Both the position numbers and the translations under genes were made by a program. 64,000 nucleotides of DNA from an uncultured Lachnospiraceae bacterium (GTDB taxonomy: Bacteria; Bacillota; Clostridia; Lachnospirales; Lachnospiraceae): contig CAMWXB010000003.1 in NCBI GenBank assembly GCA_947178125.1, positions 28,919-92,918 of the forward strand, read 5' to 3'. Within the stretch, counting starts at the first letter, position 1. Every line of letters begins with the position of its first letter. Positions 37,071 to 62,908 of the stretch are shown here, one piece after another. The notes under the pieces are model-generated. The model made no database searches, was not told the origin of the DNA, and saw only the letters and a list, made by a program, of their open reading frames with translations.

Positions 37071-38906
37071 ATGAAGAGCTTATTAAAATTTATCACATGC
37101 GGTAGTGTAGATGACGGAAAATCTACTTTGATAGGGCATATGCTTTATGATGCAAAATTAATATTTGCGGATCAGGAAAAAGCATTGGAATTAGATAGTA
37201 AAATAGGAAGCCGCGAAGGCAAAATTGATTATTCTCTTTTGTTGGATGGGTTGATGGCAGAGCGGGAACAAGGAATTACAATAGATGTAGCATATAGGTA
37301 TTTTACTACGGAAAAGAGAAGCTTTATTGTTGCGGATACACCGGGCCATGAAGAGTATACAAGAAATATGGCAGTGGGAGCTTCGTTTGCAGATGTTGCT
37401 GTAATTCTGGTAGATGCTACGCAGGGAATGTTAATTCAGACAAGACGTCATATTAGAATATGTTCGTTGATGGGAATTAAACATTTCGTTTTTGCCATTA
37501 ATAAAATGGATTTAGTTCATTATGATAAAAATATTTATGACAAAATATCCAGAGATATTAAGAGGTTTGTGGGAGAGTTTGATGTGGATAGTATCAAAAT
37601 GATACCGGTGTCAGCTACGGAGGGCGATAACGTTACTAAACATTCATTTAAAATGTTATGGTATCAAGAGGAAACTTTGCTGGAATATCTTGAGGATATT
37701 GAATTAATTAATTTTTCAAAGCAAGAAGAATTTCTTATGGCGGTACAGAGAGTCAGTAGACCGAATCATAATTTCAGGGGTTTTCAGGGGCAGATTAATG
37801 CAGGAGAGGTATCTGTTGGAGATGATATTATAGTATTGCCGAGTGGTGAGCATGCAAAAGTATCGGGGATTTATGTGACGGATCAAGAAGTAAAAACAGC
37901 ACAGATGGGACAGCCTGTGACAATACAATTAGATAGTGAGATAGATATATCCAGGGGATGTGTAATTTGTAAAAATACCAGCATGAAAGTAACTGGCATA
38001 TTTACATCCAAACTGTTCTGGATGGATGAAGAAGCACTAATTCCAGGGAGAAATTATTGGATAAAATTAGGAACTAAAATTCTTCCGGCTGCAGTGATGA
38101 ATATTAAATATAAAATAGATGTGAACAGTGGAGAGCAAATTCCTGCGGAGCATATTTATAAAAATGAATTAGCTGTATGTGATGTGATACTTTCTGAAAA
38201 ATGTGCTGTAGATATATTTGATCATAATAAAGATTTAGGAAGTTTCATTTTTATTAACAGAGTATCGAATATGACGTCAGCTTGCGGAACGGTGATGCAT
38301 ACTCTTAGACGTTCAGATAATTTAGTATGGCATGAGACTGATATTACCAAAAAAATTCGTTCCGAGCAGAAAAACCAGAAGACTAGAACGGTGTGGTTCA
38401 CAGGATTGTCAGGATCAGGAAAATCTACACTTGCTAATGAATTAGAGAAACAACTGGTGGCAATGGGAAGACATACAATGCTTTTAGATGGTGATAATAT
38501 TCGCATGGGATTGAATAAAAATCTTGGATTTACTGAAGTGGACAGGGTGGAAAATATACGAAGAATTGCGGAAGTTGCGAAACTCATGAATGATGCAGGG
38601 CTTATTGTGCTTACGGCATTTATTTCACCGTATGAGAAAGATAGGGAAAATGCCAGAGAGATTATTGGAGATGATTTCTTTGAAGTGTACGTCAGCACGT
38701 CTCTTGAGGAATGTGAAAGAAGAGATGTTAAAGGGTTGTATAAGAAGGCGCGAAATGGCGAGATACCTAATTTCACAGGCATTACAAGTCCCTATGAGGT
38801 GCCGAAATCTCCCAATCTTATAATTGACACAAAAGAAATCACGTTGGACGATGCAGTATCTTTATTAATAGAAAAGTTAGAAGAAAATGAGAGGAATAAT
38901 GTATGA
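37071..38906 (+). CDS. cysNC: bifunctional sulfate adenylyltransferase subunit 1 / adenylylsulfate (APS) kinase
   Basis: GTPase domain CGSVDDGKSTLIGHMLYD, DTPGHEEY and NKMD. C-terminal APS kinase P-loop VWFTGLSGSGKSTLANELE...LLDGDNIRMGLN. The ATG lies 2 nt after the cysD stop. Confidence 0.92.
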   Translation: MKSLLKFITCGSVDDGKSTLIGHMLYDAKLIFADQEKALELDSKIGSREGKIDYSLLLDGLMAEREQGITIDVAYRYFTTEKRSFIVADTPGHEEYTRNMAVGASFADVAVILVDATQGMLIQTRRHIRICSLMGIKHFVFAINKMDLVHYDKNIYDKISRDIKRFVGEFDVDSIKMIPVSATEGDNVTKHSFKMLWYQEETLLEYLEDIELINFSKQEEFLMAVQRVSRPNHNFRGFQGQINAGEVSVGDDIIVLPSGEHAKVSGIYVTDQEVKTAQMGQPVTIQLDSEIDISRGCVICKNTSMKVTGIFTSKLFWMDEEALIPGRNYWIKLGTKILPAAVMNIKYKIDVNSGEQIPAEHIYKNELAVCDVILSEKCAVDIFDHNKDLGSFIFINRVSNMTSACGTVMHTLRRSDNLVWHETDITKKIRSEQKNQKTRTVWFTGLSGSGKSTLANELEKQLVAMGRHTMLLDGDNIRMGLNKNLGFTEVDRVENIRRIAEVAKLMNDAGLIVLTAFISPYEKDRENAREIIGDDFFEVYVSTSLEECERRDVKGLYKKARNGEIPNFTGITSPYEVPKSPNLIIDTKEITLDDAVSLLIEKLEENERNNV

Positions 38907-40072
38907 TAAAGGATCATGAGTTACTCAGAAATATTAATTTATTGTATACAAAGAAGTTTGTGATTTGGGGATTGGGTGAGAGAGGAAAAGAATTAGCGGA
39001 AAGAATGTACGAGCAGACAAAAGACATCAGCTTTGTTGATTCAGATAAGACTAAGGTAGGCGTATGGGGAAAAATCCCAGTTTTTAGTCCAGAAAAAATT
39101 GCAGAGTATTCCAAAGTAGAAATTGCAATTGTAATACCAACGGATAATGAGAATGTGCAGGAAAGCATTATGGGGCAGATTATATCAATGGGGTATCAGG
39201 ATATTGATTTATATACCAGGTATGCAATGGATGCAATTTTAAGTTTTGTGAAGAAGAATAAGAGTATTGAAAGCAGGGGGGAGACTAAGCAGGAACTTTT
39301 ATCAATGAAGATAGAAGCGCAGCAAGGAAGAATAAATTACTTGAGTAATTTATGTAAGATGATGAATCAGATATTATTGGCCGAAATAGCGGACAATTCA
39401 GTATATGTATATCAAAGTAAGAAAGTTGCTTCCACATCGATATATGTGGGCGCCAGAGCCGCAGGCGTGTTCGGTGTTCATGTGCATAATTTTGCAGTAC
39501 TTGATTTGCCTGATTGTTTGGTGAAGAGCATGATAAAAAAGACATCAGGTAAAGTGATTTCGATTGTTAGAGAACCGGTCGCACGGCAGATTTCTTTGCT
39601 ATGGTCTTATTGGAAAAACGGAGAGTCTTTTCTTAAGAATTATGGTTCGCTGGAGGAGTTGGAAAGCAAGTTTTATTCAATTCCCAATAAAGAGGATGAA
39701 TTTGAATGGTACCACAAAGAGTTTAAAGACATATTAGATGTTAATATATATGATTATCCATTTGATCGAGATCTTGGATATTCAATTATAGAGAAAGATG
39801 GAATTTCAATACTATTATTGAAATTGGAAAAATTAAGTTCTCTGGAAAAAGTAATTGGTGATTTTCTTGAAGTAGAGAATTATAAATTAGTGAATACTAA
39901 TACAGGTAAAGAAAAATCTTATCGGTATGCATATGAAAATTATTTAGAACATGTAAAAATACCACGGGCATTTTGGGAACATTATTATTCTAAAAATGAA
40001 TATATGGATTATTTTTATACGGAAGCTGAGAAAAAGATGTTTTTTGAGCATTGGAAAGAATACTTGCGATGA
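38903..40072 (+). CDS. putative PAPS-dependent sulfotransferase with an N-terminal PglD_N-like Rossmann module
   Basis: YQSKKVASTSIY resembles the 5'-PSB loop (PKxGTT/S) and IVREPVARQISLLWSY resembles the 3'-PB motif (RxPxxRxxS). The N-terminus is FVIWGLGERGKELAERM...SFVDSD. Its ATG overlaps the cysNC stop (GTATGA). Confidence 0.55.
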   Translation: MIKDHELLRNINLLYTKKFVIWGLGERGKELAERMYEQTKDISFVDSDKTKVGVWGKIPVFSPEKIAEYSKVEIAIVIPTDNENVQESIMGQIISMGYQDIDLYTRYAMDAILSFVKKNKSIESRGETKQELLSMKIEAQQGRINYLSNLCKMMNQILLAEIADNSVYVYQSKKVASTSIYVGARAAGVFGVHVHNFAVLDLPDCLVKSMIKKTSGKVISIVREPVARQISLLWSYWKNGESFLKNYGSLEELESKFYSIPNKEDEFEWYHKEFKDILDVNIYDYPFDRDLGYSIIEKDGISILLLKLEKLSSLEKVIGDFLEVENYKLVNTNTGKEKSYRYAYENYLEHVKIPRAFWEHYYSKNEYMDYFYTEAEKKMFFEHWKEYLR

Positions 40073-40117
40073 TATGTGGTGAAAAAGTTTGTATAATCGT
40101 GAACAGGAGAAAGGTAA

Positions 40118-41950
40118 ATGATTATTTTAGGAATTTCTGCATTATATCATGATGCTGCAGCAAGTTTGGTTATTGATGGGAAAATAACGGCGGCGGCTCA
40201 ACAGGAGAGATTTTCAAGAAAAAAACATGATATGGGTATACCTTATAATGCAATAAAATTTTGCCTCAAAGAAGGGAATGTAACTTCAAAGGATATTGAC
40301 TATATTGTGTTTTATGATAATCCGCTTTTGACTTTAGATAGATATATGAAGAACATTTTAGCTGCAGGGGATGATTCAAGAGATGTAATAGAGCGAAGCT
40401 ATATTTCTATGTTTACACAAAAAATATGGATACATAACGTAATACATAATCTTCTGGATACAGATGCAGAGATTCTGATTTGCGAACATCATGTATCGCA
40501 TGCCGCATCCGCTTTTTATCCATCTCCATTTGAAGAAGCTGTCGTTATTACACTGGATGGAGTAGGTGAGTGGGCAACAACTACTATAGGGGTTGGAAGA
40601 GGCGCTGAGTTAATTATAAAAGAGGAAATAAAGTTCCCACATTCATTAGGATTGTTATATAGTGCTTTTACTTACTTTTGCGGATTCAAAGTTAATTCCG
40701 GTGACTATAAATTTATGGGTCTGGCGCCATATGGAGAGCCTATTTATGAAGAGACTATACGTGAACATCTAATAGATATAAAAGAAGATGGTTCATTTAG
40801 ATTAAATTTGGAATATTTTGATTTTCAGTATGGAAGAGCAATGACAAATGATAAATTCGGAGCACTTTTTGGGGGAGGACGAAGAGAACCAGAAACAGTA
40901 ATAACAAAACGAGAAATGGATATTGCGGCTTCGGCACAGAAAGTTACTGAAGATATTATTTTAAAAATGGTAAAACATGCAAAGAATGAATATGGAGAAG
41001 ATATAGATAATTTAGTATTAGCAGGAGGAGTGGCACTAAATTGTGTTGCAAATGGAAAAATAAAGAATTCCGAAATATTTAAGAATATTTGGATACAGCC
41101 GGCGGCTGGTGATGCAGGCGGCAGTTTAGGTGCTGCATTATACACCGCGTATAATTATGCAGGAATTAAACGGGAAATAAATGGTATGGATTCACAAAAT
41201 GGAAGTTATTTAGGTCCTGCTTATTCCAATTTAAGCATTAAGGAATATTTGAAGTCAAATAATATAATGTATCATGAATATTCTGATGACGTATTATTTG
41301 ATAAGATTGCTGACGAATTGTCGAATGGTATGGTAATAGGTTTATTTCAGGGAAGAATGGAGTTTGGTCCACGTGCATTGGGTAATAGAAGTATAATTGC
41401 TGATCCAAGATCTGAAACAATGCAGAGTAAGCTGAATTTGAAGATAAAATATAGAGAATCATTTAGACCATTTGCACCTTCAGTATTAAGAGAAGATGTA
41501 AATGAATACTTTGAACTTAAAGATGAAAGTCCATATATGTTACTGGTTGAAAACGTGCAAAGTAATAGAAGGTGTGCAAGTAATGTGCAAAATGATCTAA
41601 TAAAATATGATAATAATATGCTGGAGATTGTAAAACAAAAAAGGTCAGATATATCGGCTGTTACCCATGTGGATTATAGCGCAAGAATTCAGACAGTGTC
41701 TGAAGAGAGGAATGGATATTATTATAAAGTATTAAAGGCCTTTAAAGAAAAAACCGGATGTAGTGTATTGGTTAATACATCTTTTAATGTAAGAGGTGAA
41801 CCAATAGTATGTACGCCAATGGATGCATATAAGTGTTTTATGCGAACAGAGATGGATGTACTTGTATTAGAAAATTGCGTTTTATATAAAGAGGAACAGC
41901 CCGAATGGAATGAGCAGGAAGATTGGCATAAAACATATGAACTGGATTAG
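40118..41950 (+). CDS. NodU/CmcH-family carbamoyltransferase
   Basis: MIILGISALYHDAAASLVIDGKITAAAQQERFSRKKHD...HHVSHAASAF...GGVALNCVANGK...NTSFNVRGEPIV covers the family-wide motifs. Confidence 0.9.
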   Translation: MIILGISALYHDAAASLVIDGKITAAAQQERFSRKKHDMGIPYNAIKFCLKEGNVTSKDIDYIVFYDNPLLTLDRYMKNILAAGDDSRDVIERSYISMFTQKIWIHNVIHNLLDTDAEILICEHHVSHAASAFYPSPFEEAVVITLDGVGEWATTTIGVGRGAELIIKEEIKFPHSLGLLYSAFTYFCGFKVNSGDYKFMGLAPYGEPIYEETIREHLIDIKEDGSFRLNLEYFDFQYGRAMTNDKFGALFGGGRREPETVITKREMDIAASAQKVTEDIILKMVKHAKNEYGEDIDNLVLAGGVALNCVANGKIKNSEIFKNIWIQPAAGDAGGSLGAALYTAYNYAGIKREINGMDSQNGSYLGPAYSNLSIKEYLKSNNIMYHEYSDDVLFDKIADELSNGMVIGLFQGRMEFGPRALGNRSIIADPRSETMQSKLNLKIKYRESFRPFAPSVLREDVNEYFELKDESPYMLLVENVQSNRRCASNVQNDLIKYDNNMLEIVKQKRSDISAVTHVDYSARIQTVSEERNGYYYKVLKAFKEKTGCSVLVNTSFNVRGEPIVCTPMDAYKCFMRTEMDVLVLENCVLYKEEQPEWNEQEDWHKTYELD

Positions 41951-42332: not shown

Positions 42333-44177
42333 ATGAAGAATAATTTAGAGCCGCTTTATGTGCTCAATCCATTACTCCTAAATGACTTTAAATATTATAT
42401 CTTAGGCAATGGTAAGGCAGCGTCTCAACTATTTGTTCAATTATGTTCGTCATTTGTTAAAATAGACGGTTTCATTTGCGATGAATATAAAGGAACAACT
42501 TTGTGGCATAAACCAGTGCTCTCATTTGATGATATTCGGGGCTGTGATAATGTTATCTGCATCACTACAAGAGAGACAAATGATAAAAATACTCGTGAAA
42601 AAGGAATAATATATCATGATCCTATGATTTTAAATCCTGAATTTGATAAAAATCAAGCGGTGATATTTGGCGCAGGCATGATTGGTGTGGAAGTTTTGCA
42701 TTTCTTACGAAACGTGAATATTGAAGTGATTTGTTTTATTGATTCTAATAAGAAATTAGTCGGTAATAAAGTTGAGGATGTGTTAGTCAGAGATATAACT
42801 TATCTTACAGAGTTATCTGAGAATACATATGTGATAGAAGCTGGAAAGTATTATAAAGAGATAGATGAGATAGTGACAAAATATGTTGATGGAAATAAGC
42901 GTTTCTTTTTGGAGACTCCTTATGGGGGAAGTAGTAATGCTATTTTCGTAGATTCTGATATTGATATTAATTTGAAGAGTGTAATGTTCTTGGAAGAATT
43001 TTTTGAGGAGAGAAATCTATATTTATATGGTGATTATGAATTATCTAAAAAATATCAGGCAGTTATGGAAATGTTGGGATTTACGGTTGGTATTATAAGA
43101 GATACTACTGATAATACAGAAGAAATGTGTATAGAAGATTTATTATATGAAGAGAATTATTTGATTTTGTTGGTAGAGGGCTGGTCCAAATTGATCAACA
43201 AACTGGAATGTTTAGGGTTTCGTGAAGCTGTAGACTATGTATGGATAGAAAACCCATATATTTTTTATAATTTTTCTCGAAATGAAATGTTGGATATGAA
43301 TTTAGGATATACATATATAATGAATGAGGAATATCCAGGAATTAAAATTTTGGGAAATAACAATGCTGATGATTATAAGATTGCTGTTTTAGGTGGAAGC
43401 ACTACAGATTCTGAAGCTTGTACGGTAACATCATGGGTAGATTTTCTATATTCAAAATGTGAAAAATATAGTGTAACCATATTTAACGGGGGCACTGATG
43501 GGTACACTTCGACCATGGAATTAATTAAGTTGTTAAGGGATATTCTAAGTTTAAATCCTGATATGGTAATAGTATATGATGGTGTAAATGATGCGGTAAA
43601 ACTTACAGAAAAACCTTATGAATTTGCATATTTAAAGAGAGCTCTTTCATTCGCCGGAACAAGACAAGCTAAAAATCTGGATAATGGTAAGCAGGCTTAT
43701 AATGCTGTATGGAGCAGATCATGGGCTCGTGAGGCTGATAGAAATGAGTGTCAAATAAATTCGGGATTTTCAGAAAATAGAACTCCCTTTGATATTTGGC
43801 TTAATAATATGGAACTTATGTATGCAATATCACGTAGCAGAGGTATTAATTTTTTCAGTTTTCTTCAGCCTATGCTGTTAAGTAAGAAAGAATCGGCATT
43901 AACATTACGGGATAAGTCTTGGATTAATGCAGAATACATATGCAGGCACCAGCGAGCGATAGATGCCCAGAAAAATTTTAGAAAATTGATGACAGAACGA
44001 AAAGTAGCAGATACGCATGATTATATGTATGACTTATCGGCGATTTTTGATACCGAAGATGTATACATGGATTTTTGTCATGTTTATGAACATGGTAATC
44101 ATATGATTGCAGAAGAAATTTGGAAAATAATAAAAAAGTATGTGGTGCAACAGAATGATGAAATTGGAGGAAAGTAA
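42333..44177 (+). CDS. multi-module protein: three PglD_N-like Rossmann modules plus a C-terminal SGNH/GDSL-like domain
   Basis: AGGAGG RBS before the ATG at 42333. Module copies are YYILGNGKAASQL...GFICDE, AVIFGAGMIGVEVLHFL...CFIDSN and LYLYGDYELSKKY. SGNH-like blocks are VLGGSTTDS, FNGGTDGY, YDGVNDA and DFCHV. Confidence 0.45.
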   Translation: MKNNLEPLYVLNPLLLNDFKYYILGNGKAASQLFVQLCSSFVKIDGFICDEYKGTTLWHKPVLSFDDIRGCDNVICITTRETNDKNTREKGIIYHDPMILNPEFDKNQAVIFGAGMIGVEVLHFLRNVNIEVICFIDSNKKLVGNKVEDVLVRDITYLTELSENTYVIEAGKYYKEIDEIVTKYVDGNKRFFLETPYGGSSNAIFVDSDIDINLKSVMFLEEFFEERNLYLYGDYELSKKYQAVMEMLGFTVGIIRDTTDNTEEMCIEDLLYEENYLILLVEGWSKLINKLECLGFREAVDYVWIENPYIFYNFSRNEMLDMNLGYTYIMNEEYPGIKILGNNNADDYKIAVLGGSTTDSEACTVTSWVDFLYSKCEKYSVTIFNGGTDGYTSTMELIKLLRDILSLNPDMVIVYDGVNDAVKLTEKPYEFAYLKRALSFAGTRQAKNLDNGKQAYNAVWSRSWAREADRNECQINSGFSENRTPFDIWLNNMELMYAISRSRGINFFSFLQPMLLSKKESALTLRDKSWINAEYICRHQRAIDAQKNFRKLMTERKVADTHDYMYDLSAIFDTEDVYMDFCHVYEHGNHMIAEEIWKIIKKYVVQQNDEIGGK

Positions 44178-45063: not shown

Positions 45064-45928
45064 ATGATAAATAATAATATAGGTGGTTTGTGTTTTAGAA
45101 ATAGACATGAGAATATATTTGATATATATAAGCAAAATGAAGGATTGCTTGTTATTTATGGAGCAGCAGCTTTTGGTAAGATGTTATTAGAAGAAATTGG
45201 AGGAGGTGGTAAAGACAAGCGGTAAACGTGCAACAATTATTATTTGTATAGGAACGAAGAAATTCTCTGTATTAAGTATTTACAATGATTTAATTAAACT
45301 TGATATAGAGGCGGATGTTTTTGATTATTTTGAAAATGATAGTGTTTTTTCTGATAAAAGTTTCATGTTTAACAGTAAAAAATATGAATTGTTTGAACAT
45401 TCCTTTAACTGTGGATATGTTGATTCAAGAATGACTGAGCGAAGCGTAGAGTTGGCATTAGCACAAGAGTGGCTTAAATGCTGCAGTGGTGAAGTTGTTG
45501 AGGTTGGGGCTGTAACACCATACTATTTTTATGATAAAAAAATTGTAAAAATAGTTGATCCAACGGATTTACACCATAGGGTAAATAACAAAAAGTCATT
45601 GTTTGAGTGTGATTTTAAAGAAAAAAATATTTTGTCAATTTCAACAGTTGAACATGTTGGAACCTGCGATTACGGTATGTCTGAGGAAAAGAATGTAATT
45701 GATGCAATAGAAAAGATTGTAGAAGAAGCGAAGTCTTTTCTTATAACAGCGCCGCTTGGATATAATGAATTATTGGATGATTGGATAAGAAATAATAGAA
45801 GTAATTCCATGATTAGAATTTTGAGACGCGGTATTAATAACCACTGGGTTGAGATCGGACTGCAAGATTATCAAGAAATAGTGTATGGTCCTTTGTGGGC
45901 ATATGGGTTAGTTGTGATAGAGAAATAA
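45064..45928 (+). pseudogene. split or frameshifted gene: a PglD_N-like module fragment (53 aa) plus a methyltransferase-fold-like body
   Basis: ORF 45064-45225 has an AAAGGAG RBS and encodes ...LLVIYGAAAFGKMLLEEIGGGGKDKR*. It overlaps a +1-frame ORF 45197-45928 (VVEVGAVTP...IVDP...ILSISTVEHVG) that has only a TTG start and no RBS. Confidence 0.4.
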
Positions 45929-45966
45929 ATCATGTGGTTGTATATAAACTAATATAAAGAAGGCTG

Positions 45967-49400: not shown

Positions 49401-50738
49401 ATGGTGAATGTAAACTTAAATTATGATTATTATGATTATGTTAGGAACAATCCGGATTGTAAGGTTATTATGTATGGAGCTGGATATGAAGCAAGGAAAA
49501 ATTATAAATATTTTGACCGTATAGATTACTTTTGTGATCAAAAAGCAAAAAGTATTGAACTAATTGAAAATATTCCATGTTTATTGCCGGAAGAACTTGT
49601 GGAAATTCAAGGAAAAATGATTATTATTATCTGTATCAGGAACAAGAGTGTTGCAGAACATGTATGCTTAATGCTAGGCCGGTTACCAATAGACGCAGAA
49701 GTATTTTGTTTTTTCGATAATCCGGCTTGTTCAACTTATGATGACTCACCTTATTTATATCATTTGAATGCTAAGGATAAATTAAAAATATGTATTGTAT
49801 CAAGAAATGATGATTGGATATTAGGTAAGTTTACAAGAAAATTGCAAGAGGAGTTATGTAGACTGGGACAGGAGGCTTATATATCGAGCGAAGAAGACCC
49901 TGAAGCAGATATAAATCATTATGTGCATTTTGAGTTTCTTAGCAGAATTTATGGAAACGGAACTACTGTGAGGACAACAATGATTACGCATTCAGATTGT
50001 TTGTTCCATAAAGAAAGAATAAAGTATCATGCGCAGAATGGTGTTACCGGGATCTGCATGTCTTCGTATACATTAAATATGCTTTCGATTTGTGGAATAC
50101 CAAGAGATAAATTGTGTTATGTAAACCCGGCCCATGATGGAGATATTAAGCCAAGGAAAATAGTAATAGGAATTACATATCGTTGTCATTCGGATTATGA
50201 TCTCAGAAAAAGAGATGATTTGATTTTGCAGGTATGTAAACAGCTTGATGCCTGTTTCTTTAAGCTGAGGATTATGGGAGATGGATGGGATGAAACAGTT
50301 AGTCAGTTAGAAAAAATGGGATTTGAGGTTGACTACTATCCTGATTTTGACAGGGAAATATATAAAGAATTGATGCCCAGTCTGGATTATTGGTTTTTTT
50401 CCGGTTTTGATGAAGGCGGTATGGGATATCTGGATGCGTTGGCAGCTGGTGTAAAGACAATTGTTACGCCGCAGGGATTTCATTTGGATGCAAAAGGTGG
50501 ATTGACTTATCCATGTAGTACCATTGAAGATTTTACTAATGTTTTAAAACAGATTCAGGAGGAAAAAAGAAAAATTACAGAAGCGGTAAAAGGTTGGACT
50601 TGGGAGAACTATGCCAAAAAACATTTGGAAATATGGCAATATCTTACGCGCTCAAAACCGCTGAAAGAAATATATCTTCACCAAAGCGAGTATATGGATG
50701 GAATCTTTTCCTTGTTGATATGCGATAGCAGAGGGTAA
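49401..50738 (+). CDS. PglD_N-like module fused to a putative GT-B-type glycosyltransferase-like domain
   Basis: N-terminus KVIMYGAGYEARKNYKYFDRIDYFCDQ. C-terminus GFDEGGMGYLDALAAGVKTIVTPQGFH resembles the GT1/GT4 E-x7-E region. The start is ambiguous among 49338, 49392 and 49401. Confidence 0.35.
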   Translation: MVNVNLNYDYYDYVRNNPDCKVIMYGAGYEARKNYKYFDRIDYFCDQKAKSIELIENIPCLLPEELVEIQGKMIIIICIRNKSVAEHVCLMLGRLPIDAEVFCFFDNPACSTYDDSPYLYHLNAKDKLKICIVSRNDDWILGKFTRKLQEELCRLGQEAYISSEEDPEADINHYVHFEFLSRIYGNGTTVRTTMITHSDCLFHKERIKYHAQNGVTGICMSSYTLNMLSICGIPRDKLCYVNPAHDGDIKPRKIVIGITYRCHSDYDLRKRDDLILQVCKQLDACFFKLRIMGDGWDETVSQLEKMGFEVDYYPDFDREIYKELMPSLDYWFFSGFDEGGMGYLDALAAGVKTIVTPQGFHLDAKGGLTYPCSTIEDFTNVLKQIQEEKRKITEAVKGWTWENYAKKHLEIWQYLTRSKPLKEIYLHQSEYMDGIFSLLICDSRG

Positions 50739-53682: not shown

Positions 53683-53708
53683 TATTATGGAATAGGAGAA
53701 TAAGGGGA

Positions 53709-54935: not shown

Positions 54936-54972
54936 AAAAATTATTAAAATAAGTATACGGAAAAGCGGGGAT

Positions 54973-55464
54973 ATGAATATGAAAAAGGGAATAGGAACAA
55001 TTTTATCAACTTTAACAGGTGCATTGGTCGGAAGTGCAGTAGGAGTAGCAGTTTATAAGCAGCAACAGAAAGAAAGCAAAAAATGGAAAAATATGTCAGA
55101 TAAGCATTTGGCGTTAATGTGCCTGTTTAACCAGTGGATGATAACGAAGCAGGAGGGAAAGTCTGTTGTAGATTATTTTCATAATAACGGAATAAAGAGT
55201 GTAGCAATTTATGGAATGAGTTATTTAGGTGAGAGACTGCTTGATGAATTGTTAACTTCAGATATTGAAGTAAAATATGCTATTGATAAAAATTCAATTA
55301 GTATATATGCGAAAGTTGATGTTATTTCACCGGATGAGAATATTCCTATGGTTGATGCTATTGTTGTAACACCTGTATTTTTTTACAATGAAATTGAGGA
55401 AATGTTGTCAGCCAAAACTGAATGTAAGATTATTTCTTTGGAAGATATATTATATGAAATATAA
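54973..55464 (+). CDS. small N-terminally anchored protein with a PglD_N-like module, paralog 1
   Basis: Hydrophobic N-terminus GIGTILSTLTGALVGSAVGVAVY, then MSDKHLAL...KQEGKS...VAIYGMSYLGERLLDEL...VKYAIDKN...VDAIVVTPVFF...IISLEDILYEI. It is paralogous to 58425-58901. Confidence 0.5.
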   Translation: MNMKKGIGTILSTLTGALVGSAVGVAVYKQQQKESKKWKNMSDKHLALMCLFNQWMITKQEGKSVVDYFHNNGIKSVAIYGMSYLGERLLDELLTSDIEVKYAIDKNSISIYAKVDVISPDENIPMVDAIVVTPVFFYNEIEEMLSAKTECKIISLEDILYEI

Positions 55465-55496
55465 ATCCTAGAGACTATTATGAAAGGAGTTAAATA

Positions 55497-56780
55497 ATGG
55501 AGCAGGCAGCAAAATATCTATTGAATATAGAAAGTTTAAATAAGTGTATACAAGAGGCAGAGAGCATTGTAATTTATGGCGCAGGTGATTTTGGCAAATG
55601 TTTGATTGATTATATGATATCTATAAAAGAAGAAAAGAAAATAATAGGAATTGTCGTGACCAAGAAGAGTACGGACTGCGAATATAAAGGCATAGAAATT
55701 CATGAGGCAGTGTCTTTTCTTCCGGAGTGTGGAGACTGTTATGTGCTGATTGCTGCTTCTTACATTTATAAGCAAGATATGGCGGAAGTTGTTAATTGTT
55801 ATAATAAGCGGTATCGTTATATTTCAGATGAGTTATATATGGATATGACCGTCGAAATGGATGAGAGAACATTAGTGTCATATAGCGGTGTGGATTTTTT
55901 GTGTGTTGGTTTTTTTAAGTGCGGAACTACCTCTTTATATAGTGCGTTAAAGCCAATAGATAGTGTATATTTATCCGTAGTAAAAGAGACTGGTTTTTTT
56001 CAATGGTGTGATGCTGTGAAAAATGCTAAGGAAATGCTGATTGATAAGGTTTTTAATAAAATTAGAGAAGGTCAGATAGTAGGAATGATAGAACCTTCAT
56101 TTGCGTATACCGCTCGAAAAGTATATGATTTTTTTGGCGATAAAGTGAAAATATTTTTTTTGGTTAGAAATCCTGTTAATGCTGCTTTTTCGGGATTTAA
56201 AATGAATAATCGGGAAGGTATGGCGGGAATGGAAGCGGCATATCAAAGAGAAGGAGGCAGATTTGATATAGGAATATTTGATGTGTGGTTTGAGCGAGGT
56301 ATACATGAAGAGACTCTACTTGATTGGGAATATGCACACTGGATTGAGCAATTTAGTGAGTTATATCCAAAAGAGCAGATTAAAATAGTTATCTTTGAGG
56401 AACTTATTCAAAATCCTCAAGTGATAGTAAATGATATTTTGAAATTTATTGGTGCTTCGGAAAAATACGAATTTGAAAAACTGCCGTTAGCAAATGAAGG
56501 CGATTTTGTAATGGCGGATATAGAGGGATATAAATTAGGGAAAACGTTACATGACTGGTATTCGGCAGAGTACGCTTTAAGTATGGAAGAAATCAGAAAT
56601 AGAAGATATGAAAATTATAGTGAATATACAAAATTAAAGGAAAAATATAAGAAAGCGGAAAAAATATACGGAGTTAAAATGACAGCAGAACAGAGAAGAA
56701 AAGTAGAAAAATATTATGATGGAAGTGTTAGAAAATTAGAGAGCTTTATTAGTAGGGATTTATCTGATTTGTGGTTTTAA
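55497..56780 (+). CDS. PglD_N-like module fused to a sulfotransferase domain
   Basis: N-terminus IVIYGAGDFGKCLIDYM. The sulfotransferase 5'-PSB is LCVGFFKCGTTSLYSAL and the 3'-PB is FFLVRNPVNAAFSGF. Confidence 0.65.
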   Translation: MEQAAKYLLNIESLNKCIQEAESIVIYGAGDFGKCLIDYMISIKEEKKIIGIVVTKKSTDCEYKGIEIHEAVSFLPECGDCYVLIAASYIYKQDMAEVVNCYNKRYRYISDELYMDMTVEMDERTLVSYSGVDFLCVGFFKCGTTSLYSALKPIDSVYLSVVKETGFFQWCDAVKNAKEMLIDKVFNKIREGQIVGMIEPSFAYTARKVYDFFGDKVKIFFLVRNPVNAAFSGFKMNNREGMAGMEAAYQREGGRFDIGIFDVWFERGIHEETLLDWEYAHWIEQFSELYPKEQIKIVIFEELIQNPQVIVNDILKFIGASEKYEFEKLPLANEGDFVMADIEGYKLGKTLHDWYSAEYALSMEEIRNRRYENYSEYTKLKEKYKKAEKIYGVKMTAEQRRKVEKYYDGSVRKLESFISRDLSDLWF

Positions 56781-56828
56781 TTCAAATTATAAAGGAAAGA
56801 GTATACAGATGAGAACGGGAGATATAAT

Positions 56829-58388
56829 TTGAAAATAGCATATTTTATGGATTATGGAAGAGGTTTTGGTGGAGCGTGTGCCACGTTGCTGCATCAAATT
56901 GTATTAATAAAGAAATTAGGACATAAGGTGATTGTTTTCTTTTCCAATTATTATGGCGAAGAGATGAGTGATGAATATCGGAAAATATGTTTAGATTTTG
57001 GCATTGAATATGAATGGGAAACATATCGGATCAGTTCGCAGCCTGAGGATATAAATATTATAAGTATTGACAAAAATTATGAATATCTCAGGGATGTAAT
57101 AGTGGAAAATAATCCTGATTTGCTTCATTCAGTACAGATAAACCCTCTCGTGGAATTAATAAGTAGAGAAATAAGGAAGCCTCATATTATGAATGTTTAT
57201 CCGTTGCTTCCTGATTTTTTCAGTTTGAAATATATGAATATATTTCCACATTACCATCTTTGTGATTCATGGTATTATGCGAAACTATGGAATCGATACT
57301 TAAATACGGATTCTATGTGTATTCGAACAATAGCATGTAGTGCGTTTAAAAAGAAAGATTTTAGTAAGAAAACGATTAATTTTATTTGTGTTGGCTCAAT
57401 TTATAAAAAGAAAAATCAATTATCTGTCATTAGAGCTTTTCATAAGGCGTTATTATGTGGCGTGGAAGGCAAACTTACTATATGTGGTTATGCTGTTGGA
57501 GAATATTGTAACGAATGTATGAAATATGTAGAGGATAATAAGTTGCAAAACAAAATTATCTTCAAAGGCTTTTGTACGGATATGGAAAATGAATATCTAC
57601 AGAATGAAGTTTTGATTTGTGGAAGCACAAGGGAATCATATCCTAATGCAGTATCTGAAGCAATGGCGAATGGACTTATAATTTTATCAACTCCGGTCGC
57701 TGGAGTTCCGGAAGTAATTGAAGATAGAAAAAATGGATATCTGACAAGGGATTATTCAGCGGATGCTATATATGAAAAAATAATTCAGATTATAAAGGAT
57801 ATTGAAAATAATAAAATAGAAGAAGTTCTTATTAATTCTCGAAATACTTTTTTGGAAAATCATGCCCCCAATACTGTATCGGAGCAATTAATTAAATATT
57901 ATCGATACGTTCTGGATGATTATAGAAAAGACAAAAAAAGTAAAGACAGCATAATAAAAATAGATGATTTTCGCGCATCTTTTCACGAAATTATCAGCAA
58001 ATTTAATGAGAATAGGGCGGAATTTACTTATTTAGAAGAGATATCCAATAAGTTATGGTATCTGTATTATATCACAGATATTGTTAGTGATATGAGTGTG
58101 CGGGGGAAAAAACTATATATATGGGGTACGGGGAAATATGGAATAATAGTGAAAGAAATGGTTTCAGTTTTTTTTCCGCAAATATCTATAGAAGGTTTTA
58201 TTGATTCTAAGAGATGTGTAGAGTTTTATGATTATATAATATATAATCCGGATGATATATTGAGTAAAAAGGATGTCATTATATTTATTGCGGCAGTGAA
58301 TGGACAAGGGGAAATGATAGAAAAACTCGAAGCGATGAATAAGCGTTTTAATAGGGACTATTTTATTTTATCCGCAAGAGCATGGTAG
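56829..58388 (+). CDS. GT4-family glycosyltransferase with a C-terminal PglD_N-like module
   Basis: TTG start with a GGGAG RBS (LKIAYFMDYGRGFGG). GSTRESYPNAVSEAMANGLIILSTPVAGVPEVI is the E-x7-E region. The C-terminus is LYIWGTGKYGIIVKEM...GFIDSK. Confidence 0.7.
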   Translation: MKIAYFMDYGRGFGGACATLLHQIVLIKKLGHKVIVFFSNYYGEEMSDEYRKICLDFGIEYEWETYRISSQPEDINIISIDKNYEYLRDVIVENNPDLLHSVQINPLVELISREIRKPHIMNVYPLLPDFFSLKYMNIFPHYHLCDSWYYAKLWNRYLNTDSMCIRTIACSAFKKKDFSKKTINFICVGSIYKKKNQLSVIRAFHKALLCGVEGKLTICGYAVGEYCNECMKYVEDNKLQNKIIFKGFCTDMENEYLQNEVLICGSTRESYPNAVSEAMANGLIILSTPVAGVPEVIEDRKNGYLTRDYSADAIYEKIIQIIKDIENNKIEEVLINSRNTFLENHAPNTVSEQLIKYYRYVLDDYRKDKKSKDSIIKIDDFRASFHEIISKFNENRAEFTYLEEISNKLWYLYYITDIVSDMSVRGKKLYIWGTGKYGIIVKEMVSVFFPQISIEGFIDSKRCVEFYDYIIYNPDDILSKKDVIIFIAAVNGQGEMIEKLEAMNKRFNRDYFILSARAW

Positions 58389-58424
58389 GATAAATAGTCA
58401 AATAAGGAAAGGGGTTTAACTTAT

Positions 58425-58901
58425 ATGAAAAAAGGAATGATTGCAACAATATCAACAGTATTAGGTGTAGCTGCAGGTGCAGTCGTTGTAAGTAAGGCAG
58501 CCAGTGAAACAACAAGTAAAACAAAGCAGATGTCAGACAAACATCTGGCCCTCTATCTGATGATGAACAGATGGGTAGAGATTAAGCAGGAAGGAAAGAG
58601 TCTGGTTGATTTTTTTATTAAGAATAATTATAGGACAATTGCTGTTTATGGAATGAGTTATACAGGGGAAAGACTGCTGAATGAATTGAAGGATAGTAAT
58701 ATTACCGTAAAATACGGAATTGATCAAAGGGCAGATGAAATATATACAGGAATTGATCTTATTACAATGGATGATGAGTTCCCGGAAGTTGATGCTGTTG
58801 TAGTGACGCCTATTTTCTTTTTTGATGAGATTCGAAATAAGGTGTCATATAAAATAGACTGTCCTATTATCTCTTTGGAAGATATCTTATATGAATTATA
58901 G
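58425..58901 (+). CDS. small N-terminally anchored protein with a PglD_N-like module, paralog 2
   Basis: MIATISTVLGVAAGAVVV, then MSDKHLAL...KQEGKS...IAVYGMSYTGERLLNEL...VKYGIDQR...VDAVVVTPIFF...IISLEDILYEL. Confidence 0.5.
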   Translation: MKKGMIATISTVLGVAAGAVVVSKAASETTSKTKQMSDKHLALYLMMNRWVEIKQEGKSLVDFFIKNNYRTIAVYGMSYTGERLLNELKDSNITVKYGIDQRADEIYTGIDLITMDDEFPEVDAVVVTPIFFFDEIRNKVSYKIDCPIISLEDILYEL

Positions 58902-58922
58902 ATTTGATGAAAAGAGGGTATT

Positions 58923-59630
58923 ATGGTTTCAATTATTACGGTCTGTTTTAACAGTGAGAAGACAATTAGGGATACGATAGAAAGTGTATTGAAACAGTCA
59001 TATGAGGAAATAGAATATATCATTGTTGATGGTGGTTCTACAGATGGGACAATTTCAATAATAGAGGAATATGTTCTTTTATTTAATGGACGATTGAGAT
59101 ATATAAGTGAAAAGGATACCGGTATTTATAATGCCATGAATAAAGGAATTAGAATGTCGAAAGGAAGCTTGATAGGAATTATTAACAGTGACGATTTTTA
59201 TGAGCCTGATGCTGTAGAAAAGGCAGTTTCCTGTATGACAGAGGATGATTGTCAGGTAATATATGGATACTTACGAGTAATAGAGAAAACCGGAACAGTT
59301 AGATATACTCGGGTGAAGCATACGTCCCTTTCTGAAAAAATGATATCGCACCCTACCTGTTTTGTTACAAGGGAAACTTACAAGAAGTATGGATTATTTT
59401 TAGAAAGGCTGAAGGTTTCGGCAGATTATGAGTTGATGTTACGCTTTTATAAAAGCAACGGGGTTGTTTTTCATCATTGTCCTTATGTTATGGCGAATTT
59501 TAGAGCGGGAGGAGCTTCTTATGGCATACGGTCGAAAATGGAGCATGAATTTTCAAGATTGATGCATGGGTGTGGAAGTATAAAGGAATTTATGCAGGCT
59601 TATTGGAACTTTTTATTAAAAACGAGGTAA
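58923..59630 (+). CDS. family 2 glycosyltransferase
   Basis: VSIITVCFNSEKTIRDTIESVLKQSYEEIEYIIVDGGSTDGT...INSDDFY. Confidence 0.85.
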   Translation: MVSIITVCFNSEKTIRDTIESVLKQSYEEIEYIIVDGGSTDGTISIIEEYVLLFNGRLRYISEKDTGIYNAMNKGIRMSKGSLIGIINSDDFYEPDAVEKAVSCMTEDDCQVIYGYLRVIEKTGTVRYTRVKHTSLSEKMISHPTCFVTRETYKKYGLFLERLKVSADYELMLRFYKSNGVVFHHCPYVMANFRAGGASYGIRSKMEHEFSRLMHGCGSIKEFMQAYWNFLLKTR

Positions 59631-59635
59631 AGAGT

Positions 59636-60550
59636 ATGGATAATCGGAAACTGCAAATTGGGAACGTTATTTTAGATTTATGTAAATATAGTGGCAATGA
59701 CCAATATTCAGATGGTGATATTGAAGATGATATATTAGAGGCTGTAAAGACGGGGAAAGATTTTGACAAATATATAAGTGACAGCAGCCGCTTTGAAGTG
59801 TTCTATCATCTTTCCAAGGAGCGTGAATTAATTGCACAGATAATGGATATATCAAAAGATGACACTGTTTTGGAAGTCGGTGCGGGCTGTGGGGCTGTTA
59901 CAGGTGCTTTGGCGGATAAAGGAAAGACTGTAGAATGTGTTGAACTGTCATACAGGCGTTCCATGATTAATGCGTATCGTCATCGCAATTATGATAATAT
60001 TTTAATAAATGTAGGAAATTATGAAGATATTCAATTCGAAAAGAAATATGATGCCATTACATTAATAGGCGTTTTGGAGTATGCTGGTTATTATATACAT
60101 ACTGCCAATCCATATGAAGATTTTCTGACGGACATAAGACAAAAAATGGCTGGTGATGGAGTATTATATATTGCAATAGAAAACCGTCTGGGGATCAAAT
60201 ATTTTGCCGGATGTAAGGAAGATCATTTGAATAAAGAATATGTGGGAATTGAGGGATATCCTGATGGTGCCCGGGTCAGAACTTTTTCATACTATGAACT
60301 GAAAGAATTATTTGAGAGATGCGGATTTTCGGAATATAAATTTTTTTATCCTTACCCGGATTATAAATTCCCGCATGCGGTCTATTCAGATGATTATTTG
60401 CCGCGCAGAGGTGATTTTAAAGAAATAGGAAGCAATTATACGTCATCACGAAGAAAAATATTTAATGAATCGCATATGCTTGACAGCTTGGTAATGAAAG
60501 ATGAATTTAAAATTTTTTCTAATTCATTTCTGATTGCATTAAAAAAATAG
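59636..60550 (+). CDS. class I SAM-dependent methyltransferase
   Basis: Motif I is VLEVGAGCGAVTGALADKGKTVECVELS, followed by DAITLIGVLEY. A GAGG RBS precedes the ATG at 59636. Confidence 0.75.
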   Translation: MDNRKLQIGNVILDLCKYSGNDQYSDGDIEDDILEAVKTGKDFDKYISDSSRFEVFYHLSKERELIAQIMDISKDDTVLEVGAGCGAVTGALADKGKTVECVELSYRRSMINAYRHRNYDNILINVGNYEDIQFEKKYDAITLIGVLEYAGYYIHTANPYEDFLTDIRQKMAGDGVLYIAIENRLGIKYFAGCKEDHLNKEYVGIEGYPDGARVRTFSYYELKELFERCGFSEYKFFYPYPDYKFPHAVYSDDYLPRRGDFKEIGSNYTSSRRKIFNESHMLDSLVMKDEFKIFSNSFLIALKK

Positions 60551-60560
60551 GATGGTAATT

Positions 60561-61649
60561 ATGAGAGTTTTATATTGTAAGTCAACAGAAAAAAGACAGC
60601 CTGAATTTCAGATATATACCTCTATTGTGGAAGAAAACGGCAGTAGGTATGCTGTTAAGGAGAGTGTATATAACTGTGGAAAGAAACATATCAGGCAGAT
60701 TGCAGATTATTATGAAACCCTAAGACAGATATATGGTGAGTGTATCGTTGATAATGATATGAAAGATGGCAGGATATATTTCCCATATGTAGAAGGAGGA
60801 ACATTCGGAGATTATCTACGAAGCTTGATATATGCAAATGAGTCTGATGAAAAAATCAGACTGGCATTGCAGGAGTGGAGAACGTTTCTACGGGGGAACG
60901 AAAGCAATTTAACAGTGTTTGAGGAGTCTGTGCAATTTAAAGAAATATTTGGAGATGCAGAAAGTCTGGTGGGAGATAAAGCTCTTCGCATTACTAATTT
61001 TGATTGTATTGCAGATAATATAATTCTTTCAGAAAATGGAAGAAAAGTAATAGATTATGAATGGGTTTACGATTTCCCAATACCCGAGGAATTTACATAC
61101 TACCGTGTTTTAAAGATGTTTTTCTTAGATAATTCCAAATTATTAAATTTTGCGCAGCTGCTTTCTTTAACCGATATCAATGGGGATAAGGTTCCTATCT
61201 ACGAAAAATTATTACAGAACTTTGATACATATATTAGCCTGGATCGAGACAGAAATGTTAATTATGCAGAATTAGGGAAAATATATAAAGTGAATAAAAT
61301 ATTGTCTAAAGATGCGGATAATGATGCCCAATATCAATTTCCATTTGAAAACATTGACACGCAAAGTAAGGTTATTTTGTATGGCGCTGGGGATGTTGGA
61401 AGCGATTATTATCGTTTTATTAACAAGACAGAATGTTGCAAACTGACGGCATGGATTGATAAAAAGCATGAGCAGTATCAAAGGCTTGGATTACAGGTGT
61501 ATGGCATTGAAAAAATAGCTGAAAGTGAGTACGATTATATTATAATTGCTATTTATAATGATGAAACGGCACATGTGATTTGTGATTCTTTAGTAAGTCT
61601 CGGAATTGCAAAAGAAAAAATTTTGTGGAAAAAACCACAATATATTTAG
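60561..61649 (+). CDS. hypothetical protein: possible kinase-like (APH/ChoK-fold) N-domain plus a C-terminal PglD_N-like module
   Basis: NFDCIADNIIL...VIDYEW loosely resembles the HxDxxxxN...D motif of the phosphotransferase enzyme family. The C-terminus is VILYGAGDVGSDYYRFI...AWIDKK. The call is weak. Confidence 0.3.
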   Translation: MRVLYCKSTEKRQPEFQIYTSIVEENGSRYAVKESVYNCGKKHIRQIADYYETLRQIYGECIVDNDMKDGRIYFPYVEGGTFGDYLRSLIYANESDEKIRLALQEWRTFLRGNESNLTVFEESVQFKEIFGDAESLVGDKALRITNFDCIADNIILSENGRKVIDYEWVYDFPIPEEFTYYRVLKMFFLDNSKLLNFAQLLSLTDINGDKVPIYEKLLQNFDTYISLDRDRNVNYAELGKIYKVNKILSKDADNDAQYQFPFENIDTQSKVILYGAGDVGSDYYRFINKTECCKLTAWIDKKHEQYQRLGLQVYGIEKIAESEYDYIIIAIYNDETAHVICDSLVSLGIAKEKILWKKPQYI

Positions 61650-61660
61650 TGAAGGCGAGG

Positions 61661-62908
61661 ATGCTTAATATGAAAGTTTTTTTCTGGGGAATTGGTAAAA
61701 GATGCGAGAAAGCGCTTGATAGTTTTGTTGGAGAAGATTCGGAAATAGCTGGATTTATTGATAATAATCCCGAATATAAAGAAAAGAGATATCAGGGTAA
61801 ATCTATATATGCTTTTCATGATGTAATTGAACAGGAATTTGACTATATTGTGGTTACAATACAGAAATATAATGCAATTTTGTATCAAATTTCCAAGAGT
61901 GGTATAAGTTCGGACAGAGTAATCTGTTATTTCAGACCGGAAGACTGCGATAAGAAATATGATTCTATTTTTGATATACAAAAATGGAGAATAAATTTGT
62001 TGGAAGAAAGAGTAGAGCAACTAGAGTATTTGTTCAATATTAGATTTAATAATATTGGATATGAAGTAGCAGATAAAATTGAAAAAGAGAAGTATTGGTT
62101 TCCGACTATACTAGATGGTGAAGATGCAGTCGAACGGATAGTTGAAGAAGGATGTTCACTTGTACGTTTTGGGGATGGGGAATTTGGAATAATATCAAGG
62201 AAGAATCATCCTTGTTATCAGGACTATAATGATGTTTTGGCTGAACGTCTAAAACAGGTATTACAATCTAATGATGAAAAAATTATAGTTGCGATAGCAA
62301 GGAATTATGGAGATTTGGACATATATATTGAAGAAACAGCAGATGGAATCCGAAATTATATGACACAGAAAACCAGAGAACTACATAATTCATTGTTGAA
62401 AAAGGATAAAATATATTATGATGCATATCTTTTTAAAAGTTATTTCCCTTATCGAGATAAGGAGAATACAAAGAAACGTGTTGATATGATAAAACGTATA
62501 TGGAATGACAGGGATGTAGTAATAATAGAAGGCGACAAAACGAGAACCGGATATGATAATGACCTTATGGATAATGTGAAGTCATTGCATAGAATTTTAT
62601 GCCCTACACAGCATGCGTTTGCTTCTTATGATGCTATTTTAGAAGCTTCGCAGCAAGTCAATAAAGATAGTCTGATTTTGGTAGTTTTAGGACCTGCGGC
62701 TAAACCTTTAGTATATGATTTGGCGAAGAAAGGATATCAGGCAATTGATTTAGGGCAGATTGATATGGATTATGAGTGGTATAAGGCAGGTGTCGGACTT
62801 AAAGTTCCAAACCCGCGTAAATATGTTTCGCAGCTGCCGCCGGCTGAAGTTATAGAGATTGAGGACGAGAATTATGCAAAACAGGTAATTGCAAGGGTTG
62901 GCGTATAA
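61661..62908 (+). CDS. PglD_N-like module fused to a GT-D-type (DUF1792-like) glycosyltransferase domain
   Basis: N-terminus VFFWGIGKRCEKAL...GFIDNN. SLVRFGDGEFGIIS and the later IIEGDKTRTG...VLGPAAKPLVYDLAKKGYQAIDLG resemble the SP_1767/DUF1792 family. Confidence 0.55.
   Translation: MLNMKVFFWGIGKRCEKALDSFVGEDSEIAGFIDNNPEYKEKRYQGKSIYAFHDVIEQEFDYIVVTIQKYNAILYQISKSGISSDRVICYFRPEDCDKKYDSIFDIQKWRINLLEERVEQLEYLFNIRFNNIGYEVADKIEKEKYWFPTILDGEDAVERIVEEGCSLVRFGDGEFGIISRKNHPCYQDYNDVLAERLKQVLQSNDEKIIVAIARNYGDLDIYIEETADGIRNYMTQKTRELHNSLLKKDKIYYDAYLFKSYFPYRDKENTKKRVDMIKRIWNDRDVVIIEGDKTRTGYDNDLMDNVKSLHRILCPTQHAFASYDAILEASQQVNKDSLILVVLGPAAKPLVYDLAKKGYQAIDLGQIDMDYEWYKAGVGLKVPNPRKYVSQLPPAEVIEIEDENYAKQVIARVGV

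Follow-up and report, generated by a model that had tools for sequence, protein, structure and literature searches.

A recurrent small domain in a Lachnospiraceae gene island

A 64,000-nt stretch of a contig from an uncultured Lachnospiraceae bacterium (here called the window) contains a gene island that runs from ~28 kb on (28000-64000), has a low G+C content (33% versus 45%), and has all of its genes on the plus strand. Between 38.9 and 62.9 kb of this stretch, a module of ~90 amino acids (aa) recurs in proteins that otherwise differ: sulfotransferases, an SGNH esterase/acyltransferase, GT4 and GT-D glycosyltransferases (GT, glycosyltransferase), and two small membrane-anchored proteins (Table 1). 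Judged from its sequence, the module is a domain of the small Rossmann type, in which a strand, a Gly-rich loop, and a helix are followed by a strand ending in Asp. The first-pass annotation of the window had listed 12 places for it, all of which are present, and its estimate of at least 12 occurrences was too low. Three extra copies lie past the window end, two in successive RgpF genes (E of 3.6e-14 and 8e-16) and one in a DUF4422 gene (2.8e-5). The island total is therefore 15 copies: 10 that were detected with sequence profiles, a degenerate copy in the SGNH protein (copy c), the remnant in the broken gene 45064-45928, and the three past the window end.

Table 1. Copies of the domain in the island and other features of the window (E values from the A7 profile and from other searches; AF2, AlphaFold2)
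Feature	Position	Strand	Motif or remark	A7 E	Other evidence
N-terminal module, sulfotransferase-like protein 38903-40072	38945..39217	+	WGLGERG ... FVD	7.9e-14	Leave-one-out E 8.4e-8
SGNH protein 42333-44177, copy a	42387..42584	+	LGNGKAA	1.8e-4	Leave-three-out E 2.6e-3
SGNH protein 42333-44177, copy b	42648..42887	+	FGAGMIG ... FID	4e-14	PglD_N E 0.011; NeuD-family N-part E 3.7e-4
SGNH protein 42333-44177, copy c, degenerate	43005..43277	+	YGDYELS, without Gly loop or Asp; aa 225-315		AF2 only
Module remnant, broken gene 45064-45928	45136..45337	+	YGAAAFG ... then ATIIICIG; middle deleted		Window fragment E 0.079
N-terminal module, protein 49401-50738	49461..49676	+		1.4e-11	Leave-one-out E 3.9e-4
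Module, small membrane-anchored protein 54973-55464	55189..55458	+	YGMSYLG ... AID; without catalytic domain	2.6e-14	
N-terminal module, sulfotransferase 55497-56780	55551..55838	+	YGAGDFG, Val at Asp position	7.9e-12	PglD_N E 1.4e-3
C-terminal module, GT4 glycosyltransferase 56829-58388	58101..58346	+	WGTGKYG ... FID	5.7e-14	
Module, small membrane-anchored protein 58425-58901	58623..58895	+	YGMSYTG ... GID	5.1e-12	
C-terminal module, protein 60561-61649	61356..61631	+	YGAGDVG ... WID	3e-18	PglD_N E 1.2e-3; C2185-like_N E 0.012
N-terminal module, GT-D glycosyltransferase 61670-62908	61667..61933	+	WGIGKRC ... FID	5.3e-19	
RgpF-family gene start	62937..64000	+	C-terminal module ~1.2 kb past window end		Full protein in contigs L001 and L087
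FliD	17131-19839		Upstream of island		
Flagellin	20953-22110		Upstream of island		

Fusion of the module to unrelated catalytic domains, as had been proposed, was found in Pfam scans of the window proteins, of their relatives, and of 80 related loci. In the window, the C-terminal part of 38903-40072 matched NKWYS (PF10364), and the second sulfotransferase, 55497-56780, matched Sulfotransfer_1 at aa 133-321 (E of 2.5e-10). The GT4 protein matched Glycos_transf_1 at aa 173-326 (E of 2.9e-26) and the GT-D protein matched GT-D at aa 165-388 (E of 5e-85); the solved GT-D enzymes (4phr and 5v4a) are 274 to 277 aa long, and the N-terminal ~150 aa of the window protein, which hold the module, fall outside the alignment with them. 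The partner parts of 49401-50738 (aa 130-445) and 60561-61649 (aa 1-260) had no Pfam or PDB match other than weak ones (E of at least 0.012). By eye, the former looks GT-B-like and the latter kinase-like, with D-x-x-x-x-N ... D-x-E. Likewise, 50757-51944 and 45197-45928 gave no significant Pfam or NCBIfam match (E of at least 0.012), and NCBIfam returned nothing for 45197, 49401, 50757, or 54973.

Homology of the copies

Pairwise BLASTP comparisons of the 11 intact segments gave scores of just 14 to 28 bits, except for the two anchored paralogues (108 bits). Two kinds of profile resolved the question. Leave-one-out hidden Markov models (HMMs) were run against 673 six-frame fragments representing the whole window, with all three copies held out together for the SGNH protein (leave-three-out). 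The held-out module always ranked first, at E values of 8e-8 to 2e-2, and the best non-module fragment was at 0.08 or above. The second profile, A7, drew on a diverse set of 96 modules of other species, taken from the 80 related loci, and contained no window sequences. It detected 10 window modules at E values of 5e-19 to 2e-4 and nothing else below 0.079. The 10 segments are thus homologous by both approaches, and the alignment check that had been proposed against a generic signature gave significant alignments. Of the three tandem copies ascribed to the SGNH protein, copies a and b were recovered with the A7 profile; copy c matched neither the leave-one-out nor the A7 profiles and was seen only in the structure model.

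The alternative that there is no real family, and that the similarity is simply the generic GxGxxG Rossmann signature of unrelated nucleotide-binding proteins, is compatible with the low pairwise scores, with the appearance of DapB, TrkA, and dehydrogenases in a profile search of the PDB (E of 1e-5 to 1e-2), and with the generic nature of the Foldseek matches. However, the profiles recovered modules across 70 to 95 positions, whereas none of the 15,897 reversed decoy fragments reached 12 bits, and the modules have features in common past the loop, for example D-x(4)-K-x-G-x(3,4)-G-hydrophobic-P-V. In addition, the A7 profile did not match the class I methyltransferases of the window or the SDR epimerase and the FAD-type UDP-galactopyranose mutase encoded just downstream of it, which indicates that the signal exceeds that of a generic GxGxxG motif. 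The leave-one-out, A7, and decoy results contradict a signature-only origin, which we consider highly improbable. By these sequence comparisons, the segments all derive from a single ~90-aa accessory domain.

All of the elements of the Rossmann dinucleotide fingerprint (strand, Gly loop, helix, and strand with an acidic end) were present, and the secondary structure in the AF2 models agreed with them. The loop has the form G-x-G-x-x-[GAC] in 8 of the 12 window copies, G-x-S-x-x-G in the anchored pair, and G-x-A-x-x-G in the broken gene. Asp ends the second strand in 9 of the 12 copies when the broken copy is read from a sister contig; in SGNH copy a it is shifted by one position, in the second sulfotransferase it is Val, and in copy c the position is Arg with an Asp shifted by one.

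Relationship to known families

By its sequence, the domain belongs to a group comprising PglD_N, the CoA_binding_3 domains of WbpM, PglF, and WbaP, the nucleotide-binding domain of Rex, and PF22674 (C2185-like_N). In a local Pfam scan of the 10 window modules as isolated segments, there were sub-threshold matches to PglD_N for 4 (E of 1 or less, best 1.2e-4) and to C2185-like_N for 2. The best PglD_N scores were 19.8, 19.5, and 16.7 bits compared to a gathering cut-off of 23.4 bits (PF17836), so that the window copies are not members of that family by score. For PF22674.2 (cut-off, 27 bits), the local scan gave 16.3 bits for 60561-61649, 14.7 bits for the GT-D protein, and nothing for any other window protein. 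Precomputed matches to PF22674.3 are on record at an E of 1e-5 or less for the same two proteins, are also listed for the SGNH protein, and are faint for the anchored protein 58425-58901; none is recorded for the sulfotransferases, the GT4 protein, 49401-50738, or the anchored protein 54973-55464. Thus, PF22674, a family without an attached function, is already annotated publicly on several window proteins and on most of the anchored homologues.

From the eight window modules outside the anchored proteins, a profile was made and compared to 1.84 billion cluster representatives. This search returned 9,520 proteins at an E of 1e-3 or less, including 156 at 1e-10 or less, and the best 150 of the 9,520 were re-scanned with Pfam. 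PglD_N was the commonest family among these 150 (58 at an E of 1e-3 or less, best 2.5e-17); CoA_binding, the Rex family, was found in 30, and C2185-like_N in 21, with E values down to 5e-17. Since the window copies fall below the PglD_N cut-off while their relatives pass it, they are best described as diverged relatives and not as scored members. The NCBIfam model TIGR03570 (NeuD/PglB/VioB) matched only through its N-terminal part (profile positions 1-92) at ~20 to 21 bits (E of 2e-4 to 4e-4), far from its whole-protein cut-off of at least 160.8 bits, and no hexapeptide acyltransferase domain was detected in the module proteins in Pfam or NCBIfam scans.

When the PDB was searched with the A7 profile, it matched 3nkl, the soluble N-domain of a WbpM-type "UDP-D-quinovosamine 4-dehydrogenase" (E of 4.3e-13, 83 profile positions); the NAD(H) sensor Rex (4.3e-11, ~90 positions); aa 1-78 of 7txp (VioB), a PglD-family acetyltransferase (9.7e-7); aa 3-90 of 2g6t, an uncharacterized clostridial protein (1.9e-5); and residues 146-226 of WbaP, its PF13727 domain (~1e-3). 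The printed alignments with 3nkl, Rex, VioB, and 2g6t cover ~75 to 95 aa and have in common the Gly loop, the strand-2 Asp, and K-x-G ... G-hydrophobic-P-V. The kinship to PglD_N and CoA_binding_3 that had been suggested for the window is therefore upheld by the sub-threshold PglD_N and NeuD N-part matches, by the strong scores of the relatives, and by A7 matches to 3nkl, VioB, and WbaP over the whole ~80 aa rather than over the GxGxxG motif only. With the profile of 96 modules, the modules group by sequence with the PF13727-type domain of 3nkl and WbaP, while the PF13727 model itself was absent from the Pfam matches listed for the window proteins and global relatives.

These known systems differ from the island proteins in several ways. 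PglD_N holds the nucleotide of a nucleoside diphosphate (NDP)-sugar, and Rex is a dimeric nucleotide sensor that binds NAD(H). The GAG-G-HG of VioB aligns with the G-x-G-x-x-G of the module, and its GFLD with GF(I/V)D, but in NeuD, PglB, and VioB the domain is followed by a left-handed beta-helix (hexapeptide) acyltransferase that the island proteins lack. Unlike the island modules, Rex has an N-terminal winged-helix DNA-binding domain, a longer Rossmann domain, and no glycan context. The 2g6t protein, from Clostridium acetobutylicum, also aligned with the model of an anchored protein in Foldseek (root mean square deviation of 3.0 over 98 columns), and 2py6, an FkbM methyltransferase, was a weak match both there and with profile A1 (E of 0.99); the names of 2g6t and 2py6 in the PDB list give no function or ligand for their N-domains. 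The domain of 3nkl and WbaP has the same size, Gly loop, and Asp as the module. In WbaP and WbpM, however, it occurs once per protein, after a four-helix membrane bundle and before one fixed catalytic domain, whereas the island module is in soluble or single-helix proteins, at either terminus, in 1 to 4 copies, and with dozens of partner families; no Bac_transf domain, Polysacc_synt_2 domain, or four-helix bundle was found in the window proteins. Most of the dimer contacts of WbaP come from its PF13727 domain, which in isolated form is stabilized by UMP, UDP, and UTP; the full-length enzyme is inhibited by UMP with a 50% inhibitory concentration of 4.1 uM (PMC10942596). The same type of domain is present in PglF-type dehydratases, and a general regulatory device has been proposed (PMC10942596). 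Our literature search returned this as the sole relevant paper and none on PF22674, the domain, or the fusion pattern in Lachnospiraceae. The domain is thus catalogued (PF22674, PglD_N) and present in public tables for the window proteins; what is new is its massively combinatorial use and the existence of free anchored copies.

Distribution and history of the domain in related islands

The first-pass annotation had regarded such heavy reuse in a single operon as unusual. We examined 80 loci (1.51 Mb, almost all from Lachnospiraceae) from species-representative genomes. These were picked through a homologue of the anchored proteins, and islands without such a protein were not sampled. A window-derived profile called 573 modules in these loci at 12 bits or more compared to 0 in decoys of reversed sequence, which makes it a sensitive marker for finding such islands. 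Each ~20-kb locus had a median of 7 copies (range, 1 to 13), so that the window, with 11 to 12 copies in 24 kb, is typical and the reuse is a lineage-wide trait and not an oddity of one operon. Of the 570 open reading frames (ORFs) with a module, 564 shared the strand of the anchored gene, and ~40% of the island-strand ORF fragments of at least 150 aa bore a module.

In the scan of related genomes for the fusion pattern, the 573 copies had ~75 partner families. Modules were N-terminal in 241 cases, C-terminal in 157, internal in 43, and in small proteins in 132, and the non-module parts fell into 75 BLAST clusters, the largest of which were GT2, FkbM (the second commonest partner in these islands), GT4, RgpF, GT-D, DUF268, DUF4422, and class I methyltransferases. 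Among the best 150 global relatives, which were 89 to 1170 aa long and mostly had several matched stretches, 131 held 2 to 4 copies; their partners were GDSL/SGNH (29), GT2 (16), FkbM methyltransferase (8), GT-D (6), radical SAM (6), GT4 (5), and SPASM (at least 3), and also WbsX, CDP-glycerol glycerophosphotransferase, LicD, GT8, and TylF.

Conservation across the 573 copies was highest for the aromatic residue and the first Gly (96% each), followed by strand-2 Asp (79%), the third Gly/Ala (78%), and the second Gly (76%, with Ser in 15%). Median identity was 18% within one island versus 21% for the same partner class across species. For 378 of the 573 modules, the nearest relative had the same partner class, and for just 14 it was in the same locus. 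This rules out recent duplication within islands and indicates that the fusions are of old origin and move as whole genes. Taken together, these results demonstrate that the module is an old, promiscuous domain, located at either end of late-stage glycan-building or tailoring enzymes or alone on one membrane helix. In the window and just past it, these enzymes are the sulfotransferases, the SGNH protein, GT4, GT-D, RgpF, and DUF4422, and elsewhere they include GT2 and FkbM methyltransferases. On the basis of these sequence data, the observation is solid and general, and it concerns a real, catalogued domain that is used combinatorially.

Anchored proteins and structure models

The anchored proteins belong to a family of more than 100 homologues of ~158 aa, most with a precomputed PF22674 match. 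Species-representative genomes contain 292 relatives, with ~1.6 genes per locus in the 80 loci. In this family, the single membrane helix has a conserved GAxxGA motif, and both a stalk Trp and the C-terminal SLEDILY are invariant. The AF2 model of 58425-58901 (116-sequence alignment, pLDDT of 86) has a long N-terminal helix (residues 9-55) and then an alpha/beta domain (residues 71-157). Compared to the PDB with Foldseek, it gave only generic Rossmann folds at an E of 7e-3 or above, a search that was probably hampered by the long helix and that does not discriminate PglD_N from other subfamilies.

The SGNH protein, modeled from an 81-sequence alignment (pLDDT of 89.5, pTM of 0.88), was predicted to form a single compact body, in which the SGNH domain is preceded by three strand-helix-strand units in a row. 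Copy a forms the first of these (E21-24, H28-39, E46-48), and copy c is modeled as a third unit (E228-232, H235-247, E252-256, H267-272, E276-280, H285-293) with a pLDDT of ~90. The Foldseek matches of this model were dominated by SGNH esterases and were uninformative on the modules.

Genetic setting and broken genes

The fall in G+C at 28000 is abrupt and is accompanied by a strong positive GC skew over 28000-64000, which suggests horizontal acquisition or a distinct compositional regime. Besides FliD and flagellin (Table 1), the upstream region encodes three GT2-TPR proteins, which resemble GmaR-type flagellin glycosyltransferases, and other glycosyltransferases. GT2-TPR paralogues bracket the plus-strand island, lying at 22315-25627 (minus strand) in the window and at 17152-19309 (minus strand) in L087. 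Past the window end, the contig has two RgpF genes, a DUF4422 gene, an SDR epimerase gene, two GT2-TPR genes (minus strand), and a UDP-galactopyranose mutase gene.

By inspection of the translations, the block also encodes two IspD-like proteins and a sulfate ABC transporter, CysQ, CysD, and CysNC (region 31585-40072). Other products of the block are a NodU-type carbamoyltransferase (40118-41950), a DegT aminotransferase, a SPASM radical-SAM protein, methyltransferases, and an AsnB-type amidotransferase. The sulfate genes are directly upstream of the two sulfotransferase-type genes (31585-40072; 55497-56780) and the carbamoyltransferase gene. With these genes, the predicted product is a glycan that is both sulfated and carbamoylated, recalling the decorations of Nod factors. 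Among the genes examined, none for an exporter, a flippase, or a priming transferase was seen; together with the GT2-TPR flanks and the flagellar genes, this would fit a cytoplasmic flagellin-glycosylation island. No flagellin was found within +-10 kb of the 80 related loci, a distance that would also miss the flagellin of the window itself, and the link to flagellin therefore comes only from this contig, with its FliD, flagellin, and GT2-TPR flanks.

Two genes of the island are interrupted. In 45064-45928, ~79 nt between short AAGAA repeats that are kept in the sister contigs L001 and L004 are missing, L001 being a metagenome contig that is 99.3% identical over 45188-64000. The module repaired from L001 matched the A7 profile at profile positions 4-93, i.e., as a full module (E of 6.5e-8). 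The copy that had been assigned to this gene is thus homologous, but in the window it is a deletion remnant. In the sister contigs (cf. L001 1-950), the same gene has the 79 nt but is frameshifted at a run of 7 to 8 G, which may reflect phase variation at this tract or a mistake in the assembly. The radical-SAM/SPASM gene 45967-47014 is split at a T9 run (~46212-46220) into a 95-aa CxxxCxxC part and a 257-aa SPASM part; since the split is the same in the sister contigs, the gene is frameshifted or slippage-prone.

Possible function of the domain

The close relatives of the module (the Rex, PglD/VioB, and WbaP domains) all bind nucleotides. We therefore favor, with a probability of roughly 0.45, the reading that it is a nucleotide-binding and dimerizing accessory domain, similar to that of WbaP, which serves many enzymes as a common regulatory handle. 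Through its Gly loop and strand-2 Asp, the module would bind a nucleoside monophosphate, an NDP, or the nucleotide moiety of an NDP-sugar, and two copies would pair. The many enzymes of one pathway would in this way gain a shared regulatory and dimerizing handle, which the anchored copies would put at the membrane. Pairing is hinted at by the common tandem arrays (2 to 4 copies per protein), the compact SGNH model, and the GAxxGA in the anchored helix. Several results count against this proposal. Taken singly, the window modules do not reach the gathering scores of Pfam in the local scan, and PglD, WbaP, and 3nkl were not among the best 50 Foldseek matches of the anchored model. The Gly loop is lost in SGNH copy c, and Val replaces the Asp both in the sulfotransferase 55497-56780 and in 13% of the 573 copies. 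Finally, the catalytic partners use different nucleotides (NDP-sugars, 3'-phosphoadenosine-5'-phosphosulfate, and S-adenosylmethionine) or none (SGNH), so that a common regulatory ligand is not obvious.

The first-pass annotation had proposed a shared handle for substrate recognition or for assembly, and each of these is reasonable, both having a precedent in the WbaP domain (UMP/UDP binding and dimer contacts). As a substrate handle acting in cis, in the manner of PglD and VioB, the module would hold the nucleotide of an NDP-sugar for its fused catalytic domain, and tailoring by sulfation, acylation, or methylation would take place on the nucleotide-activated sugar, ahead of its transfer. The significant relationship to the N-domains of VioB (7txp, 1e-6) and of the NeuD/PglB/VioB family agrees with this, as do the conserved Gly loop and Asp and the presence of Methyltransf_14 in 26 of the best 150 relatives; in sugar C-methyltransferases the latter forms the C-terminal domain, which in TcaB9 holds the dTDP-sugar. 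We nevertheless consider such a role unlikely, since the module is also on GT2, GT4, GT-D, and RgpF enzymes, which have donor sites of their own, as well as on anchored proteins with no catalytic domain and in tandem arrays of 2 to 4, while the island enzymes that certainly act on NDP-sugars (the DegT aminotransferase and the SDR epimerase) lack it. Slightly more doubtful still is a pure docking unit, likened to cohesin-dockerin pairs or polyketide synthase docking domains, in which nucleotide binding is vestigial and modules pair with each other and with the two anchored copies to form a membrane-tethered glycosylation line. The widespread stand-alone anchored copies, with their retained GAxxGA helix and invariant C-terminal SLEDILY, would suit this arrangement, as would the occurrence of the module at either terminus, with ~75 partner families and on ~40% of the long ORFs of these islands, the frequency of tandem arrays, and the dimer contacts of the WbaP domain. 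On the other hand, the Gly loop and Asp are strongly conserved, which speaks for continued ligand binding, and two modules from one island resemble each other no more than a random pair does (18% identity), with no obvious matched pairs. A docking or assembly role could also coexist with ligand binding. That docking copies join interchangeable glycosyltransferases and tailoring enzymes into a membrane-tethered, nucleotide-gated machine in Lachnospiraceae, probably for flagellin, strikes us as improbable on present evidence.

The flagellins of gut Lachnospiraceae are major immune targets, and a literature search indicated that their glycans are almost unstudied. If a common domain does regulate or assemble most of the late-stage enzymes of these islands, it would provide a single experimental handle, through its ligand or its partner, on a very diverse glycan repertoire, and it would explain how islands can exchange enzymes in the form of ready-made fusions. 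It would also extend the "one-size-fits-all" idea of nucleotide sensing proposed for WbaP from initiating enzymes to whole pathways.

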